Source: Escherichia coli (lineage in GTDB: Bacteria > Pseudomonadota > Gammaproteobacteria > Enterobacterales > Enterobacteriaceae). From it: a stretch of 64,000 nt of DNA. The stretch lies in assembly GCF_030013205.1 (NCBI RefSeq), contig NZ_CP122648.1; one strand, written 5' to 3'. Position 1 is the stretch's first letter, and the number at the start of each line of letters is the position of its first letter. Position numbers and translations under genes: made by a program. Shown here piece after piece: positions 8,881 through 17,048 of the stretch. Below the pieces are notes generated by a model. It was not told the DNA's origin. It worked only from the letters and a program-made list of their open reading frames with translations, and made no database searches.

Positions 8881-9990
8881 TCACTCTGTTTCTGCTATCC
8901 ATTCCGGGATTTTTGCCTCAAGCTCAAGCTGTGTGGTAAAGCCGCTGTTATCAATGGTGTGCTCGGCTTTCGCAATAATCCAGTCCTGATTATCAATCTC
9001 GCTTTTAAATCCTGTTACCGTGCCATGCATTTCGGGGTAGAGTTCTGCACGTCCACGCACCAGCGTGATGGAAAACGATGCGGCTCCGCGTTGTAGCTGC
9101 TGCCACTTTGCCGCCGCTGCGCGTCTTGCTGCCTGCTCGTTCTGATAAGTCTTGCGTAACACAAACACATTGCCTTCCGCGCCTTCCATATAATCACCTT
9201 CACGGCTGCTGCTTTTCTCCTTTTTGGGTTTTGGCGGTTTGCGGCGTTTCACGCTGACTTTTTTCTTTTTCCCGTAATTAAGATCAAGCCAGTAAGCGCG
9301 TACCCCCGTATACGCCTCGCGGTCAGCAATGCGGAACTGATGGCGATCGCCGCTGCTGCGTGTGATGGCGAACGATGGCAACGGCTGGCCCTGTGCGTTC
9401 ACGCCACCGCCGGGCATGATGAATAACAGATTACCGCTTTTTACCGTGGTGATTGCGCCCAGCATTTCCGCCATGCGCGTAAGGAAGGACATGTCGCTTT
9501 CTTCAGTCTGGTCGGCGTGGTCGATTTCGATATCCATCAGCATTTCGCTGATTTGCGGTTTCAGGCCGTACCGATGAGCGATGGCGGATACCACACGTTC
9601 AACGGTCACATCATGCCAGGACGCCTCACGTTTAACATTAAATTCATCCCGAAAATCTGCGCTTCTGGCTGAAACAGTCAGCCTGTCCGGCGGTCCTTCG
9701 TGAGCGATTTCATCAATAATGTAAGTGCCTTTTTCTGTCAGCGGTTCCCCTTTCCAGCCAATGAGAACCGTCAGACGCGCGCCCCGTGGCGGTAGCTGCA
9801 ACTGGCCATCGGCATCATCCAGCGTGATGGTGAGCTGGTCCGCCTCAAATCCCCGGTTGTCGGTCAGTGACAGGCTCATCAGGCGTTCTGCCACGCCGGA
9901 CAGCGTTTTACCCTCGGCGAGAATATCAAAATCCGGCATTTTCACGGGGTCTGTGCCCTGACTGAGCAATTGCATGGTGGTGTCGGTCAT
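8881..9990 (-). CDS. P2 gpD-like tail protein (late control gene D family)
   Basis: ORF 8881..10122; likely true start is ATG at 9990, preceded by GGGAGGG (MTDTTMQLLSQGTDPVK...); Lys-rich central stretch and overall gpD-like size. Confidence 0.75.
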   Translation of the reverse strand: MTDTTMQLLSQGTDPVKMPDFDILAEGKTLSGVAERLMSLSLTDNRGFEADQLTITLDDADGQLQLPPRGARLTVLIGWKGEPLTEKGTYIIDEIAHEGPPDRLTVSARSADFRDEFNVKREASWHDVTVERVVSAIAHRYGLKPQISEMLMDIEIDHADQTEESDMSFLTRMAEMLGAITTVKSGNLLFIMPGGGVNAQGQPLPSFAITRSSGDRHQFRIADREAYTGVRAYWLDLNYGKKKKVSVKRRKPPKPKKEKSSSREGDYMEGAEGNVFVLRKTYQNEQAARRAAAAKWQQLQRGAASFSITLVRGRAELYPEMHGTVTGFKSEIDNQDWIIAKAEHTIDNSGFTTQLELEAKIPEWIAETE

Positions 9991-10147
9991 CTGTTCCCTC
10001 CCTGTGCGGCATGGTCGCATGTGCGTGCGGAGGGGGTTACTGCTTTTTGTTGTCGCCGTGGCGGGAGAATAGCGCAGGGGTGAGATTACGCGCGTGGTGG
10101 GTGATGATTGTTGCTGAATCATTTAACGGATACAAGGGGCTGAAGCT

Positions 10148-11332
10148 ATGAGTGAAACTCGTTTTCATGGTGCCCGTGTTACGGAAAATACCGACCTGGT
10201 AACAGCGATTAACGATGTTGATTCCAGCGTTATCGGTATCGTGGCAACGGCGGATGATGCGGACGCGAAGCTGTTCCCGCTGAACAAGCCCACATTGCTG
10301 ACCCGCGTCAATGACGTGCTGGGAAAATGCGGAACAACGGGGACGCTTTATCGTGCGCTTAAGGCCATCGCAGACCAGGTGAGCACAAAGGTGATCGTCG
10401 TTCGCGTGGCTGAACACAAAGAAGAAGACGGAAAGACGCAGGATCAACTGGTTATCGGTGGTTCTGAGGATGACGGCAGCTATACGGGGATGTATGCGCT
10501 GCTTGTTGCAGAGCAGGATGAAAGCATCGGATACCGTCCGCGTATTCTGGCCGCGCCGGAGCTGGACACGGAGGCTGTAACAAAATCCCTGTGCGTGATT
10601 GCAGGTAAACTGCGCGCGTTTGTGTATGCCTCATGTCACGGCTGTAACACGATGGCTGAGGCGATTACCTACCGCCAGAAATTCAACGAACGTGAGGTGA
10701 TGCTCTTATGGCCGGACTTCATCGCCTACAACCCGAAAAGTGGCAAAAACGAAACGTTCCCCGCGCCTGCCTATGCGTGCGGCCTTCGTGCGTACATTGA
10801 CCATGAGCAGGGCTGGCACAAATCGCTGTCCAACGTTCCGGTTAAAAATGTGCTGGGGATGTCCAGGCATGTGTTCTGGTCGTTGCAGGCCGAAGACAGT
10901 GATGCCAACAGCCTCAACAACAAAGAAATCACGACCATTATTCGTCGCAACGGGTTCCGCTTCTGGGGCAACCGCACACCGGAAACGAACGCCTACATCT
11001 TTGAGGTGTATACCCGAACCGCACAGGTGCTGGCTGATTCAATTGCGGAAGCGCAGTTTGAAACCATCGACAGTCCACTGACGCCTGCGAACGTGAAAGA
11101 TGTTATCAGTGCCATCAGGGCAAAACTGGATTCACTGGTTACTGCCGGGAAACTGATTGGGGCGTCGTGCTGGTATGACGTGGTGGATAACGGCACCACG
11201 AATTTACGTCAGGGGCGCGTGCGTATTCGCTACAAATATACGCCTGTTCCCCCGCTGGAAGACATGGAGCTTTACCAGTCGTTTACTGATGAATTCTTTG
11301 GTCCCGCATTTGCGGTGCTGGGAGGTGCCTGA
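10148..11332 (+). CDS. Contractile tail sheath protein (P2 gpFI-like)
   Basis: 394 aa; aligns by eye with P2 FI (FPLNKP, CxKLRAF, IRRxGFRFWGNRT, YxYTPVPPLE motifs). Confidence 0.9.
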   Translation: MSETRFHGARVTENTDLVTAINDVDSSVIGIVATADDADAKLFPLNKPTLLTRVNDVLGKCGTTGTLYRALKAIADQVSTKVIVVRVAEHKEEDGKTQDQLVIGGSEDDGSYTGMYALLVAEQDESIGYRPRILAAPELDTEAVTKSLCVIAGKLRAFVYASCHGCNTMAEAITYRQKFNEREVMLLWPDFIAYNPKSGKNETFPAPAYACGLRAYIDHEQGWHKSLSNVPVKNVLGMSRHVFWSLQAEDSDANSLNNKEITTIIRRNGFRFWGNRTPETNAYIFEVYTRTAQVLADSIAEAQFETIDSPLTPANVKDVISAIRAKLDSLVTAGKLIGASCWYDVVDNGTTNLRQGRVRIRYKYTPVPPLEDMELYQSFTDEFFGPAFAVLGGA

Positions 11333-11844
11333 TGGCTGTACCAAAACATCTTCGCTTTTTTACGCTGTTTGTGGATGGTGAAAACGAAGTGGGTAAGGTG
11401 ACGTCCGTCACTCTGCCTAAGCTGACGCGCAAAACCGACAGCTACCGGGGTGGTGGCATGATGGGTGCGGTAAGTATTGATCTCGGTCTGGACGACTCCG
11501 CGCTTGATGCGAGCTTTGTCATGGGGGGCGCAGTTCGTGAGCTGTTCCTTAAGTATGGCGGCACGATTGACGGCACGCTGCTGCGTTTTGCGGGTGAATA
11601 CTACACCGATGCAGAAAGCGACCTGTATGAAGTCGAAATGCGCGGACGTGTGACGGAAATTGATATGGGGGAAGCCAAACAGGGCGAAGCCACATCACAC
11701 ACTTACGCCATTAAAAACACCTACTACAAGCTGAGTGTTAACGATCGCCCGTTGTGGGAGATTGACCTGCTGAACTTCATTTACCGGAAGGACGGCAAGG
11801 ACATTGTGCCCGATCGCATCCGTTCCGCGCTCGGGCTTGGCTGA
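11332..11844 (+). CDS. Tail tube protein (P2 gpFII-like)
   Basis: 170 aa, immediately after the sheath gene with overlapping stop/start (ATGA). Confidence 0.85.
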   Translation: MAVPKHLRFFTLFVDGENEVGKVTSVTLPKLTRKTDSYRGGGMMGAVSIDLGLDDSALDASFVMGGAVRELFLKYGGTIDGTLLRFAGEYYTDAESDLYEVEMRGRVTEIDMGEAKQGEATSHTYAIKNTYYKLSVNDRPLWEIDLLNFIYRKDGKDIVPDRIRSALGLG

Positions 11845-11899
11845 TAAGTAATATGCAGGCGGCGCAGTGCGTCGCCTCTGACTGAAAAGGAGACAACTG

Positions 11900-12274
11900 A
11901 TGAAAGACATCGATACTGAAACCCGGAATAACACCGTGGCGGATGATGTGACGGCAGGTGAGGATATGGCTGTCGAACATGGCGTAAAACTGACCCGACC
12001 AATTGAGCGTGGTGGCGAAAAAATCACGTATGTGGAGATCACCGGGGCTATTGAACAGGCTGGATCCCTGCGTGGTCTGTCGCTGTCTGATGTGCTGAAT
12101 CTGAAAGCGGATACCATGTTCACGCTGTTGCCTCGCGTGACCTCGCCACGACTGGATGAAGTGATGATTAAAAAAATGTCGTCACGCGATTTTATTCAGT
12201 TGTGCGCTGTGGCTGTAAATTTTATGAGCGAGCCAGACTCTGGCGCGAAGAGCGTGCAGGAGACGGCAGCGTAA
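11900..12274 (+). CDS. Tail assembly chaperone (P2 gpE-like)
   Basis: 124-aa ORF between tube and tape-measure genes, with an overlapping -1 frame ORF (E'). Confidence 0.75.
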   Translation: MKDIDTETRNNTVADDVTAGEDMAVEHGVKLTRPIERGGEKITYVEITGAIEQAGSLRGLSLSDVLNLKADTMFTLLPRVTSPRLDEVMIKKMSSRDFIQLCAVAVNFMSEPDSGAKSVQETAA

Positions 12275-12438
12275 TCACCCTGGTGTGCTTTGAGCACATC
12301 GAAGATCTGGTGGCAGATATCGCCGCCATTTTTAACTGGTCGCCCGCCGAAATCTTCATGATGACGCCCGGCGAAGTGGTTAGCTGGCGTGAGCGGGCGG
12401 CACTTCGCAGCGGGAATGCAGACAATGAAGACTCTTGA
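12202..12438 (+). CDS. E' extension, -1 frame of the tail chaperone (predicted E+E' frameshift product)
   Basis: ORF in the -1 frame overlapping the 3' end of E; candidate slippery heptamer A-AAT-TTT at 12217..12223 in the E frame. Confidence 0.5.
   Translation: MRCGCKFYERARLWREERAGDGSVITLVCFEHIEDLVADIAAIFNWSPAEIFMMTPGEVVSWRERAALRSGNADNEDS
12217..12223 (+). promoter_or_regulatory. Candidate programmed -1 ribosomal frameshift site (AAATTTT)
   Basis: XXXYYYZ heptamer inside the E/E' overlap, in the correct phase for E to E' slippage. Confidence 0.4.
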
Positions 12439-15232
12439 CATCCGGGTCGCTTTCAGCGCCGTTGACAGGCTGACCCGGCCTGCCGAAAACGCCCGCCGCC
12501 TGATGGGGCAGTTTGGTGACTCCATCCAGCGAACGCAGGGGGCGATCAAAAATCTCGAGCGTCAGGCGCGTTCATTTGAGCGCGCCCGTGACGCTGTCAG
12601 TAAAGCGGATGCTGGCATATTGAAAGCACGACGCCAGCTTAACGCCCTTAATCAGTTACAACGCACGGGTACAGTGCTCAGCGAAAAACAACAAAAGCTG
12701 ATGCAGCAGTTAAGCACCCGGCTTGAACGCCTGAATGAATCGCGCACACGGGAAATTCAGAAAATGCGGGAGCTTGGCGGAGAGCTGAAACGCCACGGCA
12801 TTTCCCTGACAGGCAGCGATAACACCATCCAGCAGGCCATCAGACGCACCGAACAGTACAACAACCAGCTTGAACGCGAACGGCAGGCGCTTGCGCGTGT
12901 AACACGGGCGCGTGAGCGGTATTCGCGCGCGCAGGAAACAGCGGGAAAACTGAAAACAGGTGGTGCGCTGGCAATTGGTGCGGCAACGGCGGGCGGCTAT
13001 GCTGCCGGGCGTTTTTTGCAGCCTGCGATCGGGTTCGGCAAAGAGATGTCCCGCGTTCAGGCACTGACGCGAATCGACAAAAACAGCCCGCAGTTTAAGG
13101 CGCTGCGTGAGCAGGCGTTAAAACTTGGCTCTGAAACACAGTTTACTGCGAGTGATGCCGCCAGTGGGCAGAGCTTTCTGGCAATGGCTGGTTTTACTCC
13201 GCAGGCCATTCAGGCCGCATTGCCCGGTGTTCTTAATATGGCGCTGGCAGGTGGCGTCGAACTCGGCGAGACGGCTGATATAGGCTCCAATATCCTCACA
13301 CAGTTCAACCTGACAGCCGATCAAATGGACCGTGTTGGCGATACGCTGACAGCAGCATTCACCCGGACCAATACTGATTTACGCGCGCTGGGCGAAACCA
13401 TGAAGTATACCGGTCCGGTTGCCGCAAAACTTGGTATCAGTCTTGAAGAAGCGGCGGCCATGGCCGGGATGCTTGCCAATAATGGTCTTCGCGGAAGCGA
13501 TGCTGGTACGGCCATGCGCGCAAGTCTGTCCCGCCTTGCATCACCGCCAAAAGCTGCGGCTGATGCACTGAAAGAGCTGGGGGTGTCAGTTGCTGACGCC
13601 AGAGGCAAAATGCGCCCGATGGAGGATGTGCTGCTTGATCTCTATAAGGCGACACAAAAATACGGACAGGTGGACCAGGTTTCCTTCTTCAAGGACATCG
13701 CCGGAGAAGAGGCGTTCGTTGGTTTGCAGACGCTTGTTGCGGCGGCTGGTTCAGGAGAGCTGCAAAAACTGACCAGAGAATTGCAGGGGGCAAGGGGAGA
13801 GGCCGATCGCGTCGCAAAAGTAATGGCCGATAATCTTGATGGGGACCTGAAAAATCTCGACAGCGCATGGGAAGGTCTTCGTATTCGCATCAGTGATCTG
13901 GTTGACGGTCCGCTGCGTTCTGTCACGCAGTGGCTCACGCGGGTGCTTGAAAAAATCACCTCGCTGGCGCAGGCCCATCCGGTACTGACGCGCCAGCTAC
14001 TGATAGCAGGCGGTGCGTTGCTGGCAATGACTGCAACGATTGGCTCGTTGTCGCTGGTTATTGGGGTGCTTTACGGGAAGCTGGCCACCCTGCGTCTTGG
14101 TTTTGACATTCTTACCCGGTCAATGAATGTCGTCAGGGTGTTGCCTGCGCTGTGGGGAATGGTGACGGGTTCCGTTTCTTTACTGGGAGGCGCCATCGGG
14201 GCGTTGTTCAGTCCGGTTGGTCTTATCGTGGCTGCGCTTGCCGGAGCTGCCGTTCTTATCTGGAAATACTGGGATCCCATCAGGGCATTTTTTGCCGGGG
14301 TGTTCAGCGGGATTATGGAAAGGCTGACCCCGTTGCGCGAAACCTTTGAACGGTTTGGTCCTGTTTTTGACACAATCGGAAGCGGGATCAGCCAGGTGTT
14401 TAACTGGTTTAAATCGCTGCTGTCACCGATGGAGTCCAGCAAGGAAACGCTGGATAAATGTACCAGTGCTGGCGAGATATTCGGTAACGTTCTTGGCGGT
14501 GCGTTACAGCTTGTTCTGACACCTGCAAAAATGCTACTGGATACGCTGGCGTGGATACTTGAAAAACTTGGCGTCCTTCCGGATGAAGCGGAAAGGGCGC
14601 GCAAGAAAATCGAAGACGCACAGCGTGCGGCCATTCTTCAGGACAAGGTTGTCTTGCTTCAGGGTGACCTGGCGAAAATCAATCCGCCGAAGCCTGTGGA
14701 AAATGGCAATGGCACCGGAGGTAATAAACCCAAAGACAACAAACCGCTCACAGACAGCAATACCGGGACGCTACGCAGACTCAGCAAAATTGCTGATAAC
14801 ACAGGTAAGCTGGTTGATGAGACGAAAAAACGCATTGGCCCCGGCGATATTGTCTTTAAGAACCTGCCCCGCGCACTTGCTGTTCGTGGAGAGTGGCAGG
14901 AGCGGAAGATTGCGCAGGTCAGTAAGCCTGCCCCCGCAATTAATATCACACCCGTGGTCCCGGCTCCGCTGCCTCCGGCGCTGGTCCCTGTTGTTGCGGC
15001 CAGCTCCCGCCCGGTGGCGGAGGCCATACGATCTCCAGTGGCATCAGTTCCTGTAACTTCCCGTAACCGGGAGCCTGTTGCCTCCGGATTTGGTGGTGAA
15101 ATTCATGTTCATCTGCATAACGTTGTTACGCAGAATCCCCGCGAACTGGCGAAACTGGTCGGTGAAATGGTCAGGGCAGAAATGGAACGGCGCGCCCGTG
15201 CCGGGCGTGGCAGTTTTTACGATAAAGATTGA
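12389..15232 (+). CDS. Tail tape measure protein (P2 gpT-like)
   Basis: 947 aa, long coiled-coil-rich N-terminus and C-terminal hydrophobic segments, position after E/E'; true start probably a downstream Met (12416 or 12425). Confidence 0.85.
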   Translation: MSGRHFAAGMQTMKTLDIRVAFSAVDRLTRPAENARRLMGQFGDSIQRTQGAIKNLERQARSFERARDAVSKADAGILKARRQLNALNQLQRTGTVLSEKQQKLMQQLSTRLERLNESRTREIQKMRELGGELKRHGISLTGSDNTIQQAIRRTEQYNNQLERERQALARVTRARERYSRAQETAGKLKTGGALAIGAATAGGYAAGRFLQPAIGFGKEMSRVQALTRIDKNSPQFKALREQALKLGSETQFTASDAASGQSFLAMAGFTPQAIQAALPGVLNMALAGGVELGETADIGSNILTQFNLTADQMDRVGDTLTAAFTRTNTDLRALGETMKYTGPVAAKLGISLEEAAAMAGMLANNGLRGSDAGTAMRASLSRLASPPKAAADALKELGVSVADARGKMRPMEDVLLDLYKATQKYGQVDQVSFFKDIAGEEAFVGLQTLVAAAGSGELQKLTRELQGARGEADRVAKVMADNLDGDLKNLDSAWEGLRIRISDLVDGPLRSVTQWLTRVLEKITSLAQAHPVLTRQLLIAGGALLAMTATIGSLSLVIGVLYGKLATLRLGFDILTRSMNVVRVLPALWGMVTGSVSLLGGAIGALFSPVGLIVAALAGAAVLIWKYWDPIRAFFAGVFSGIMERLTPLRETFERFGPVFDTIGSGISQVFNWFKSLLSPMESSKETLDKCTSAGEIFGNVLGGALQLVLTPAKMLLDTLAWILEKLGVLPDEAERARKKIEDAQRAAILQDKVVLLQGDLAKINPPKPVENGNGTGGNKPKDNKPLTDSNTGTLRRLSKIADNTGKLVDETKKRIGPGDIVFKNLPRALAVRGEWQERKIAQVSKPAPAINITPVVPAPLPPALVPVVAASSRPVAEAIRSPVASVPVTSRNREPVASGFGGEIHVHLHNVVTQNPRELAKLVGEMVRAEMERRARAGRGSFYDKD

Positions 15233-15238
15233 GGAGTC

Positions 15239-15733
15239 ATGGCCATGATGATGATCTACGGCATGTTTGTTTTTGAGCTGCGCACGCTGCCGCATCAGCA
15301 GTTACAGCAAAACAAAAGCTGGCGGCATGTGAAAAATGAACGCGTTAACCGTTCAGCAAGCTGGCAGTATATCGGTGCAGGTGATGATCGCATCGTTCTT
15401 TCTGGTGTGCTTTATCCTGAAATTACAGGTGGCGAAGTGTCGCTGTCGCTGCTGACCACGCAGGCGTATACAGGACGCCCCTGGCCTCTTATTGATGGCG
15501 TCGGGCAGATTTACGGCATGTATGTCCTGACCGAAACGAATACGACCCGTTCCGAGTTTGATCGCTACGGTAAGGCGAAAAAGATAGAATTTTCACTGAC
15601 CCTTGAACGCTGTGATGAGGATTTGCGGGAGCGCCTGCAATCCTCATCGTTCAGCGATATGCTGTCCGGCTTCAAAGATAAAGTGACATCATCCCTTAAC
15701 AGCGCGGCCAGTTCAGTTAAAGGGCTGTTCTGA
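15239..15733 (+). CDS. Tail protein (P2 gpU-like)
   Basis: 164 aa MAMMMIYGMFVFELRTLPHQ...; N-terminal similarity to P2 U; directly follows the tape measure gene. Confidence 0.75.
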   Translation: MAMMMIYGMFVFELRTLPHQQLQQNKSWRHVKNERVNRSASWQYIGAGDDRIVLSGVLYPEITGGEVSLSLLTTQAYTGRPWPLIDGVGQIYGMYVLTETNTTRSEFDRYGKAKKIEFSLTLERCDEDLRERLQSSSFSDMLSGFKDKVTSSLNSAASSVKGLF

Positions 15734-15903: not shown

Positions 15904-16467
15904 ATGCTGAATAATAGAGATATGAATATTAATGAACTTAAAGATTGTATTCACTATGAAGTAATCGGTAGCGAGCGTCCTTTCTCCTGGCGAAAGGCAA
16001 TTGTTCGCGCAATAAAACATAGAAGAGTTCGTTATTTATTTTGGTGGCGCATAGCCAAATACCTTTTTGATAAAGGCGGATACTGTCGGAAGATTGCGGG
16101 GAAAATAGAACGTTTCATTCTTGATAAATATAATGTAACAGTCCCTTTAACTGTAAATATAGGGAAAGGCTTTGATATTTCTTATCTCAACAGTGTTGTT
16201 ATCGGTCACAAAGTAACAATCGGTGAAAATTGTTCAATAAAACCAGGGGTAACTATTGGGCTGCGTGGTGATTTTAATGATATGGATATTGTTATAGGAC
16301 ATAATGTGACCATTGGTTGTAATGCCACCATTCTTGGTGGCAAAGTGCGTATAGGAAACAATGTCACAATAGGTGCTCATGCATTGGTATTGCATGATAT
16401 TCCAGATGATTCAACATTCATCACTAAATTTCAGTCTGAAGTTATCTGCTCGTCCTCCCGCACATAA
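15904..16467 (+). CDS. Hexapeptide-repeat (left-handed beta-helix) acyl/acetyltransferase, cargo at the Z/fun position
   Basis: 187 aa with tandem [LIV]-G-x-x-x-x hexapeptide repeats ([22 protein letters not shown]...[16 protein letters not shown]...); AT-rich; convergent with and overlapping the 3' end of the tail-fibre assembly gene. Confidence 0.7.
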
Positions 16468-17048
16468 CCCTGATTCATCAGCTCTGGCCATACGATATCC
16501 GGAGCTGTACTGGTGTCAATTCTACTCACTAATACTCTGTATTTTCTCCAGGAATCCAGTTGTGAATTTTCCTCGTTTGTTGCTATTTCAAGATTAACTG
16601 CATCCTGCAGAATTGCGATGTTATCTGTTGCTTCCTGGATCAACCTTGCCTTTTTCTCTTCCGCTTCCCGTATCCGAAACAGTTTTTCTGCTTCCTCATC
16701 CTTCACCCAGGATACGCCGTCCCACTTCTGATACTCCCCTGCTGGCGACAACCAGGTGACATTCTCTGGTAGCGGTCCGGGTTCAGAAATAAACAACGCG
16801 TCCCCCGATGCCACGTCATAGACCGTTTTACCACGATGGTCTTCAACAATATTCCACGATTCATTTTCACTGTTAAAAACTGCCACAAAGCCAGCAGGAA
16901 TTTCCGGTGGGGCGATATCTGTAGAATTGGCTGGCAGCCCTGTATGAGGTGGAATATATGCGTCACCTTCACCAATAAACTCATTAGTTCCGGCCAGCAG
17001 GTTATAAATTTTTACAGTACGTGATTGTTCACTCATTCTGAATGCCAT
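16431..17048 (-). CDS. Tail fibre assembly protein (P2 gpG / Tfa family)
   Basis: 205 aa; typical Tfa N-terminal region; start overlaps the stop of the upstream tail-fibre fragment (TAATG). Confidence 0.8.

Follow-up and report, generated by a model that had tools for sequence, protein, structure and literature searches.

A predicted P2-type E/E+E' frameshift site, displaced one codon upstream, in the tail operon of a P88-like prophage of Escherichia coli

Does a tail chaperone gene of the P2 family still yield both E and an E+E' fusion once the slippery heptamer used by P2 has been destroyed? The question is raised by a locus in a 64,000-nucleotide stretch of Escherichia coli DNA (contig NZ_CP122648.1), referred to here in its entirety as the window. 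The tail operon in the window belongs to a P88-like (Xuanwuvirus) prophage of the P2 family and has the order FI-FII-E-(E')-T-U (Table 1). Over the 651 bases around the slip region, several E. coli chromosomes match the window at 100% identity, phages P88_4B11, Shae_phiSM, 503458 and 520873 at 98.5-98.9%, and P88, Chuche, 500465-2 and PhiR44_2 at about 84-86%. The sequence evidence described below points, with a probability of about 0.85, to a P2-type E/E+E' -1 frameshift at A_AAT_TTT as the source of the fusion in the window lineage.

Gene E is flanked by the tube gene FII and the tape measure gene T. An AGGAG Shine-Dalgarno sequence stands 7 nt 5' of its ATG, and its codons start at positions that leave a remainder of 2 on division by 3. 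The E product was found to match PHROG 103 'tail protein' (1.2e-36). Residues 29-109 also match the Pfam family PF10109 (Phage_TAC_7) at 20.6 bits, under the 25-bit cut-off, and this match stops at residue 109, exactly at the heptamer position. No NCBIfam family was matched by E or by the E+E' fusion. The -1 frame, preceded by TAA at 12169-12171, has no stop between 12172 and the TGA at 12436-12438 and overlaps E by 103 nt; of the interval 12181-12438 given in the first-pass annotation, the end therefore stands and the start is to be moved to 12172. The GpE domain in this frame (PF06528) scores 46.3 bits against a 23-bit cut-off and covers residues 47-82 of the translation from 12172, and the translation matches PHROG 1756 (4.8e-42). 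Downstream, the PGAP start of gene T in an identical E. coli record maps to 12425, and 14 nt are shared by the start of T and the end of E'. Homology, the position between FII and T, and the PF06528 match agree with the earlier proposal of a tail chaperone gene with an overlapping -1 ORF, as in the P2 E/E' pair. Conservation of the E' frame in homologues, on which that proposal had been made to depend, was examined as well, and the frame was intact in all 172 loci surveyed. Judged from homology and conservation, the -1 frame is both coding and conserved.

Table 1. Features of the tail operon and slip region, in window coordinates
Feature	Position	Strand	Evidence or remark
gpD-like hub gene	upstream of FI	opposite strand	
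Sheath gene FI	10148-11332		
Tail tube gene FII	11332..11844	+	PF04985, 7.5e-47; 5' neighbour of E
Gene E, candidate tail assembly chaperone	11900..12274	+	ORF; zero-frame product 124 aa
A7 run within the open -1 frame	12170..12176	+	alternative slip site, rejected
Slippery heptamer A_AAT_TTT	12217..12223	+	P-site AAU (Asn), A-site UUU (Phe)
P2-homologous slip position	12220..12226	+	reads T_TTT_ATG, slippery no longer; alignment with P88-like phages
E' coding segment, -1 frame	12223..12438	+	first codon TAT 12223-12225, stop TGA 12436-12438
Phage_P2_GpE domain (PF06528), -1 frame	12310..12417	+	2.9e-12
Tape measure gene T	12425..15232	+	PF10145, 1.6e-56; 3' neighbour
Gene U	15239-15733		

Within the overlap, no canonical X_XXY_YYZ heptamer other than A_AAT_TTT is in phase. 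The AAT (12218-12220) and TTT (12221-12223) of this heptamer are zero-frame codons within the motif V-N-F-M, so that the phase A_AAT_TTT is correct, and the codon frame upholds the first-pass reading of AAATTTT as a correctly phased heptamer inside the overlap. The background rate in the long open frames of the window is 0.0028 in-phase canonical heptamers per codon, and the chance expectation in the 34-codon overlap is ~0.09 such heptamers, or ~0.03 for the efficient subset. The heptamer by itself is not strongly improbable, and the case must therefore rest on other evidence, chiefly that from relatives. Among 38 distinct P88-like sequences, the synonymous positions of the heptamer, 12217, 12220 and 12223, were observed to be invariant in 37, 38 and 38, respectively, and the five wobble positions just 5' of it are all polymorphic. 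A literature search for AAATTTT in tail chaperones gave nothing specific to the P88-like phage group.

What has become of the P2 slip site in this lineage? The P2 record (NC_001895) annotates E+E' as a -1 frameshift product at TTTTTTG, and PMC3091744 gives the same slip site and describes T_TTT_TTG as conserved among P2-like phages; the P2 sequence given in the first pass was thus the right one. The P2 codons are GTC GGT TTT TTG, with the slip on T_TTT_TTG. The 84% identical phages P88, Chuche, 500465-2 and PhiR44_2, which form clade B, read GTA AAT TTT TTG and hold both heptamers, and the window lineage reads GTA AAT TTT ATG. The P2-homologous heptamer position lies 3 nt, or one codon, 3' of A_AAT_TTT, and the single T-to-A change from TTG to ATG destroys the P2-type heptamer there, leaving A_AAT_TTT as the sole slippery sequence. 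The idea that the site is a variant of the P2 sequence thus holds in a specific form, with the P2-type heptamer mutated in the window lineage and A_AAT_TTT remaining. From the comparison of these sequences, the ancestor of the lineage very probably carried the extended run A_AAT_TTT_TTG, of which the P2-type half was then lost, with reliance falling on the upstream heptamer.

The same exchange was traced through 172 related loci, consisting of 160 contigs from IMG/VR together with 12 annotated sequences of phages or the window. An in-phase canonical heptamer was found at the V-x-F-L position in every one of them. TTTTTTN is present in 137, with N mostly G and in a few cases A or C, and is missing from two groups only: the window lineage (20 loci, two mosaics among them) and a Klebsiella group (15 loci) with the codons GTC CCT TTC TTG and the heptamer C_CCT_TTC. 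Both groups have retained, 3 nt upstream, a heptamer of the canonical form X_XXT_TTY. Where the upstream codon is GGT, ACT or GAT, or occurs as G_CCT or T_AAT, no upstream heptamer is possible, and TTTTTTN is kept in all such lineages. With TTTTTTA, TTTTTTC and CCCTTTC also occurring, T_TTT_TTG varies inside the family, and the P2 slip sequence is therefore not defining for membership. On one contig (L029), the sequence on either side of the ATG is otherwise of clade-B type (7 clade-B-type sites 5' of it and 20 on the 3' side), a pattern that suggests a second origin of ATG or a very short gene conversion.

The frame of coding constraint was followed by tallying variable sites in the 38 distinct P88-like sequences by E codon position (1/2/3). 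The counts are 26/16/50 in the E-only part and 5/4/13 over 12172-12216, the latter with the wobble periodicity of the E frame. They become 4/10/4 over 12224-12271 and 7/23/11 where E' alone is encoded. The second codon position of E is the third of E', and the dominant constraint frame thus flips at the heptamer (Fisher p = 0.012), although the 38 sequences are essentially two deep clades plus mosaics and so represent few independent evolutionary changes. Judged from this periodicity, reading in the -1 frame covers the stretch after the heptamer, still 5' of a GTG at 12283, but not the one from the A7 run to the heptamer.

A conceptual fusion of E residues 1-108 with the -1 frame from 12223 gives a 179-aa E+E'. 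In BLASTP against P2 E+E', it was found to yield a single HSP that spans the junction (33% identity, 8e-29), and it is collinear with five homologous fusions, namely those of P2, P88, two Klebsiella phages and one Enterobacter phage. V106 and F108 of the V-x-F-L slip motif are invariant in this alignment. The slippage that we infer would proceed as follows. Most ribosomes on E would stop at the TAA at 12272-12274 and release the 124-aa gpE. A minority would slip back 1 nt with tRNA-Asn on AAU (12218-20) and tRNA-Phe on UUU (12221-23), both moving jointly to re-pair with AAA and UUU, and the next codon would be the TAT at 12223-12225. Translation in the -1 frame would then run to the TGA at 12436-12438 and give the 179-aa E+E' with the junction ...AVAVNF-YERARLW... 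and a C-terminal GpE domain; the predicted tryptic junction peptide for a slip at 12217-12223 is DFIQLCAVAVNFYER. By analogy with P2 and lambda G/GT, gpE and E+E' would be tail assembly chaperones acting around the tape measure protein, in a ratio set by the slip efficiency.

Elements that might stimulate the slip were sought on both sides of the heptamer. Segments of 32, 60 and 100 nt 3' of it were folded for the window, P88, P2, and Klebsiella and Enterobacter relatives, and compared with shuffled sequences. The search for a downstream stimulatory structure, which the first-pass annotation had put forward as a check, found none that was convincing: for the window, neither the 60-nt fold (z = -0.46) nor the 100-nt fold (z = -1.14) surpasses shuffled sequences in stability, and the covariation term of the alignment fold is positive (+1.04), with double changes at three pairs and several others disrupted. 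Clade B does not preserve the small hairpin seen at 12232-12244 in the window. The sole significant fold among those compared is the 100-nt fold of P88 (z = -2.41), which is driven by a distal hairpin. Upstream of the heptamer, no Shine-Dalgarno-like element was found in the window, where the best anti-Shine-Dalgarno pairing is -2.3 kcal/mol; P2 has AAGGUGG 5-11 nt 5' of its slip site, with a pairing of -7.8. An Rfam scan of 11800-12600 returned nothing relevant. A weak or unconventional stimulator may still act at the site. For neither P2 nor the Burkholderia P2-like phages does PMC3091744 report a downstream stimulatory structure.

How slippery is the remaining heptamer? P2-type frameshifting reportedly exceeds the lambda efficiency of roughly 1:30 by 2- to 3-fold. 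A direct comparison of heptamers is provided by Sharma et al. 2014 (PMC4066793), in which 64 heptamers were assayed with an E. coli reporter without a stimulator, with the IS911 stimulators or with the IS3 pseudoknot. Under these three settings, frameshifting was 0.070, 0.355 and 11.4% for A_AAU_UUU (Table S3), 0.118, 0.247 and 0.77% for U_UUU_UUG, and 0.193, 1.39 and 23.2% for C_CCU_UUC (PMC4066793). By these figures, the remaining heptamer is at least as good as the lost one. The pattern H_HH.U_UU.Y was classed among the most efficient motifs in E. coli, and in E. coli genes in-phase occurrences of A_AAU_UUU are strongly avoided (z = -9.1) (PMC4066793).

Among the alternatives to a joint slip, the one that survives best has tRNA-Phe slipping alone on U_UUU (12220-12223), with the upstream AAA idle and an identical protein as the product. 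The U_UUU tetramer is among the few that are active in E. coli, at 0.80% with the pseudoknot (PMC4066793 Table S2), and P2 (C_GGT_TTT_TTG) and others have no slippery P-site codon before the first Phe codon. However, A_AAU_UUU is ~14-fold above the tetramer in the same setting (11.4% vs 0.80%), the wobble bases 12217 (A) and 12220 (T), which matter only for the heptamer, are conserved, and both lineages without TTTTTTG had the full upstream heptamer. A slip of tRNA-Phe alone is thus considered unlikely, and a joint slip of both tRNAs on A_AAT_TTT is preferred.

A second alternative holds that the change of TTG to ATG disabled the ancestral slip site, that little or no E+E' is made, that the tail module is decaying and that A_AAT_TTT is a leftover. 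The P2-homologous heptamer is indeed destroyed, the stimulator search in the window found none, and A_AAU_UUU without a stimulator, at 0.070%, is at the reporter background of 0.055% (PMC4066793). In the same assay, however, U_UUU_UUG is no better than A_AAU_UUU, and an equivalent switch was made independently by the Klebsiella clade. The E' frame is intact in 20/20 loci of the window lineage and visibly under purifying constraint, and the 55-nt slip region is found in 598 of 5426 complete E. coli genomes, in 528 of them exactly. A further test case is provided by Shae_phiSM from C. rodentium DBS100 (36,753 bp), which is taken here as the phiSM/CRP38 prophage (36,759 bp) and has a slip region identical to that of the window. 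phiSM/CRP38 was described as a fully functional phage that forms plaques and lysogens (Magaziner et al. 2019, PMC6456863). Its release titre is low, about 10^3 PFU/ml (PMC6456863), a point on the side of a disabled site; that it forms plaques and lysogens at all counts against one. On the identity of the two slip regions, the slip-site variant is judged to be viable, and loss of frameshifting in this lineage is regarded as very improbable.

Production of E' as a separate 51-aa protein started at GTG 12283, with no need for a frameshift, would account for the way in which these loci are annotated. PGAP and most phage records give two CDSs: those of E. coli K_EC180, P88, Chuche, 500465-2, P88_4B11, 503458 and PhiR44_2 have separate CDSs and no join, PGAP names the ORF from GTG 12283 a 51-aa 'GpE family phage tail protein', and in the inspected P88-like phage and RefSeq E. 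coli records E' is either this 51-aa GTG ORF or uncalled. A frameshift annotation and the 179-aa E+E' are absent from all P88-like records inspected. The GTG is present in the window, but no Shine-Dalgarno sequence precedes it, the nearest AGGAG ending 20 nt upstream, and the start is not conserved across the family. Moreover, E'-frame constraint is already visible over 12224-12271, 5' of the GTG, and the W..ER.GDG residues encoded there are conserved in more distant relatives. P2 itself is annotated, and reported in the literature, to make E+E' by frameshifting. Independent initiation at GTG 12283 was therefore rejected as a highly improbable source of E'.

Least credible of all is a shift 45 nt earlier at the A7 run, whether through ribosomal slippage at T_AAA_AAA or through an extra A inserted during transcription (predicted junction peptide KKNVVTR...): the -1 frame does open at 12172, directly inside the run, and A homopolymers are known slippage sites, with AAAAAAA strongly avoided in E. 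coli genes (PMC4066793), but this site was rejected because T_AAA_AAA is no canonical in-phase heptamer, 12172-12216 keeps E-frame and not E'-frame periodicity, a fusion there would cost the chaperone domain its conserved D-F-I..V-x-F end, and a -1 stop between the conserved run and the heptamer means that the run cannot serve in clade B.

Seven A residues also make a short run for efficient transcriptional slippage, which counts further against the A7 run. What distinguishes the window lineage from P2, for which the programmed -1 frameshift between E and E+E' was reportedly described by Christie et al. in 2002? The two systems share the position between FII and T, homologous proteins, a GpE domain in the -1 frame, a slip at the conserved V-x-F-L and an E' end that overlaps the start of T, and no downstream stimulatory structure has been recognised for P2 (PMC3091744) or, convincingly, in the folds of the window. 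They differ in five respects: 1) P2 uses T_TTT_TTG with Phe and Leu tRNAs, whereas the window would use A_AAT_TTT with Asn and Phe tRNAs; 2) the P2 heptamer position reads T_TTT_ATG in the window, where the only slippery heptamer lies one codon upstream; 3) the Shine-Dalgarno-like AAGGUGG is upstream of the P2 site only; 4) E is 124 aa in the window, with an N-terminal extension, versus 91 aa in P2; and 5) the D gene is not downstream of U in the window.

Other relatives stand nearer or further. P88, Chuche, 500465-2 and PhiR44_2 have the same genes, A_AAT_TTT at the same position and a separately annotated E', but in P88 clade B the sequence is A_AAT_TTT_TTG, with both heptamers, and just 27 nt of open -1 frame precede the heptamer. 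The Klebsiella Reipivirus-type loci (ST16-OXA48phi5.4 and 14 IMG/VR loci) have lost the P2-type heptamer in parallel while keeping the upstream one; they differ in having C_CCT_TTC, in the disabling change, which is TTT to TTC in the Phe codon, and in proteins that are ~50% identical. The G/GT pair of lambda, with the slip site G_GGA_AAG, resembles the system in its shared N-terminus, its two proteins at a fixed ratio and a -1 slip near the gene end before the tape measure gene. The lambda frameshift, and the one conserved in the tail genes of dsDNA phages, were reportedly described by Xu, Hendrix and Duda in 2004 and by Levin in 1993. Both tail chaperone proteins of the lambda G/GT type are reported to be absent from virions.

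On this comparison of sequences, the window lineage falls within a known recoding family as an ordinary member, with its slip site displaced one codon upstream and no new mechanism, and the understanding of tail chaperone frameshifting is unchanged by it. For annotation, the point is that in the P88-like phage and RefSeq E. coli records inspected E' is called as a separate ORF or is missing, and the 179-aa fusion is absent; the slip region itself is carried by 598 of 5426 complete E. coli genomes. For the family, loss of a heptamer regarded as 'conserved', TTTTTTG, is seen to be tolerated by lineages that have a canonical heptamer one codon upstream, which amounts to a small natural experiment; this tolerance agrees with the reporter data, in which A_AAU_UUU and C_CCU_UUY outperform U_UUU_UUG in E. 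coli. Extended runs X_XXT_TTT_TTG occur in many phages of the P2 family, as A_AAT_TTT_TTG in P88-like phages and C_CCT_TTT_TTG in several enterobacterial phages. It is conceivable, though less likely than not, that in phages with X_XXT_TTT_TTG the operative enterobacterial slip site is the upstream X_XXU_UUY and not U_UUU_UUG; the predicted junction peptides of P88, DFIQLCVVAVNFFER versus DFIQLCVVAVNFLER, would distinguish which of its two heptamers is used. If the upstream heptamer is the operative one, U_UUU_UUG would be dispensable, which would explain its loss at least twice and perhaps three times, and losing U_UUU_UUG or keeping both heptamers would be a way to tune the ratio of E to E+E'.

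In phage P2 (L009, 2667-2675), an SD-like AAGGUGG element lies 5-11 nt upstream of the T_TTT_TTG slippery heptamer and pairs with the 16S 3' end at -7.8 kcal/mol, whereas no comparable SD-like element was found in the P88-like phages in the region corresponding to window 12195-12216. AAGGUGG may be a so far unrecognised stimulator in P2. Downstream of gene E, a 9-bp hairpin begins 7 nt past the stop codon. Both P88-like clades retain it, and one of its pairs shows a compensatory change from GC to UA. The hairpin lies 58 nt past the A_AAT_TTT heptamer of the window, and is thus too distant to be a classical frameshift stimulator.

The TTG-to-ATG change by which the window lineage lost the P2-type heptamer was also observed in L029, the IMG/VR contig IMGVR_UViG_2534681835_000034. 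Its flanks are of the type found in the P88-containing clade B, with 7 informative sites of B type ahead of the change and 20 beyond. Because the flanks are of this type, the sequence suggests that the ATG of L029 had a second independent origin or was acquired by very short gene conversion.

Features in and around the tail operon (window coordinates)
Feature	Position	Strand	Details
gpD-like baseplate hub gene	8881-10122	minus	PF05954
Top anti-Shine-Dalgarno match within gene E	11953-11968		GGCAGGUG, -8.7 kcal/mol; sequence AGGUGAGGA
Hairpin, 9 bp	12281-12301		UGGUGUGCU-UUG-AGCACAUCG; -10.8 kcal/mol, z = -1.55
Hexapeptide-repeat acyltransferase-like ORF	15904-16467		PF00132, 1.1e-12
Tail fibre assembly gene	16431-17048	minus	PF02413

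Unlike in the P2 FETUD operon, where D is downstream of U, the gpD-like hub gene of the window is located upstream of the sheath gene FI, in divergent orientation. The PGAP CDS at this gene in an identical E. coli record is shorter and is named 'VgrG/Pvc8 family'. FI itself (10148-11332) encodes a P2-type contractile sheath (PF04984), as does the phiSM genome (L010). phiSM is currently classified in Peduoviridae, whereas its description from electron microscopy was that of a siphovirus whose long tail is non-contractile (PMC6456863). Between gpU and the tail fibre assembly gene lies the acyltransferase-like ORF, which is AT-rich as judged by eye and looks like accessory cargo.

The strongest anti-Shine-Dalgarno match within gene E sits ahead of an internal ATG at 11966 (Met23 of E), the point at which the start of P2 gpE aligns. 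The E proteins of clade B have no Met at the equivalent position, and the 22-aa N-terminal extension of E may therefore be optional in the P88-like clade of the window.
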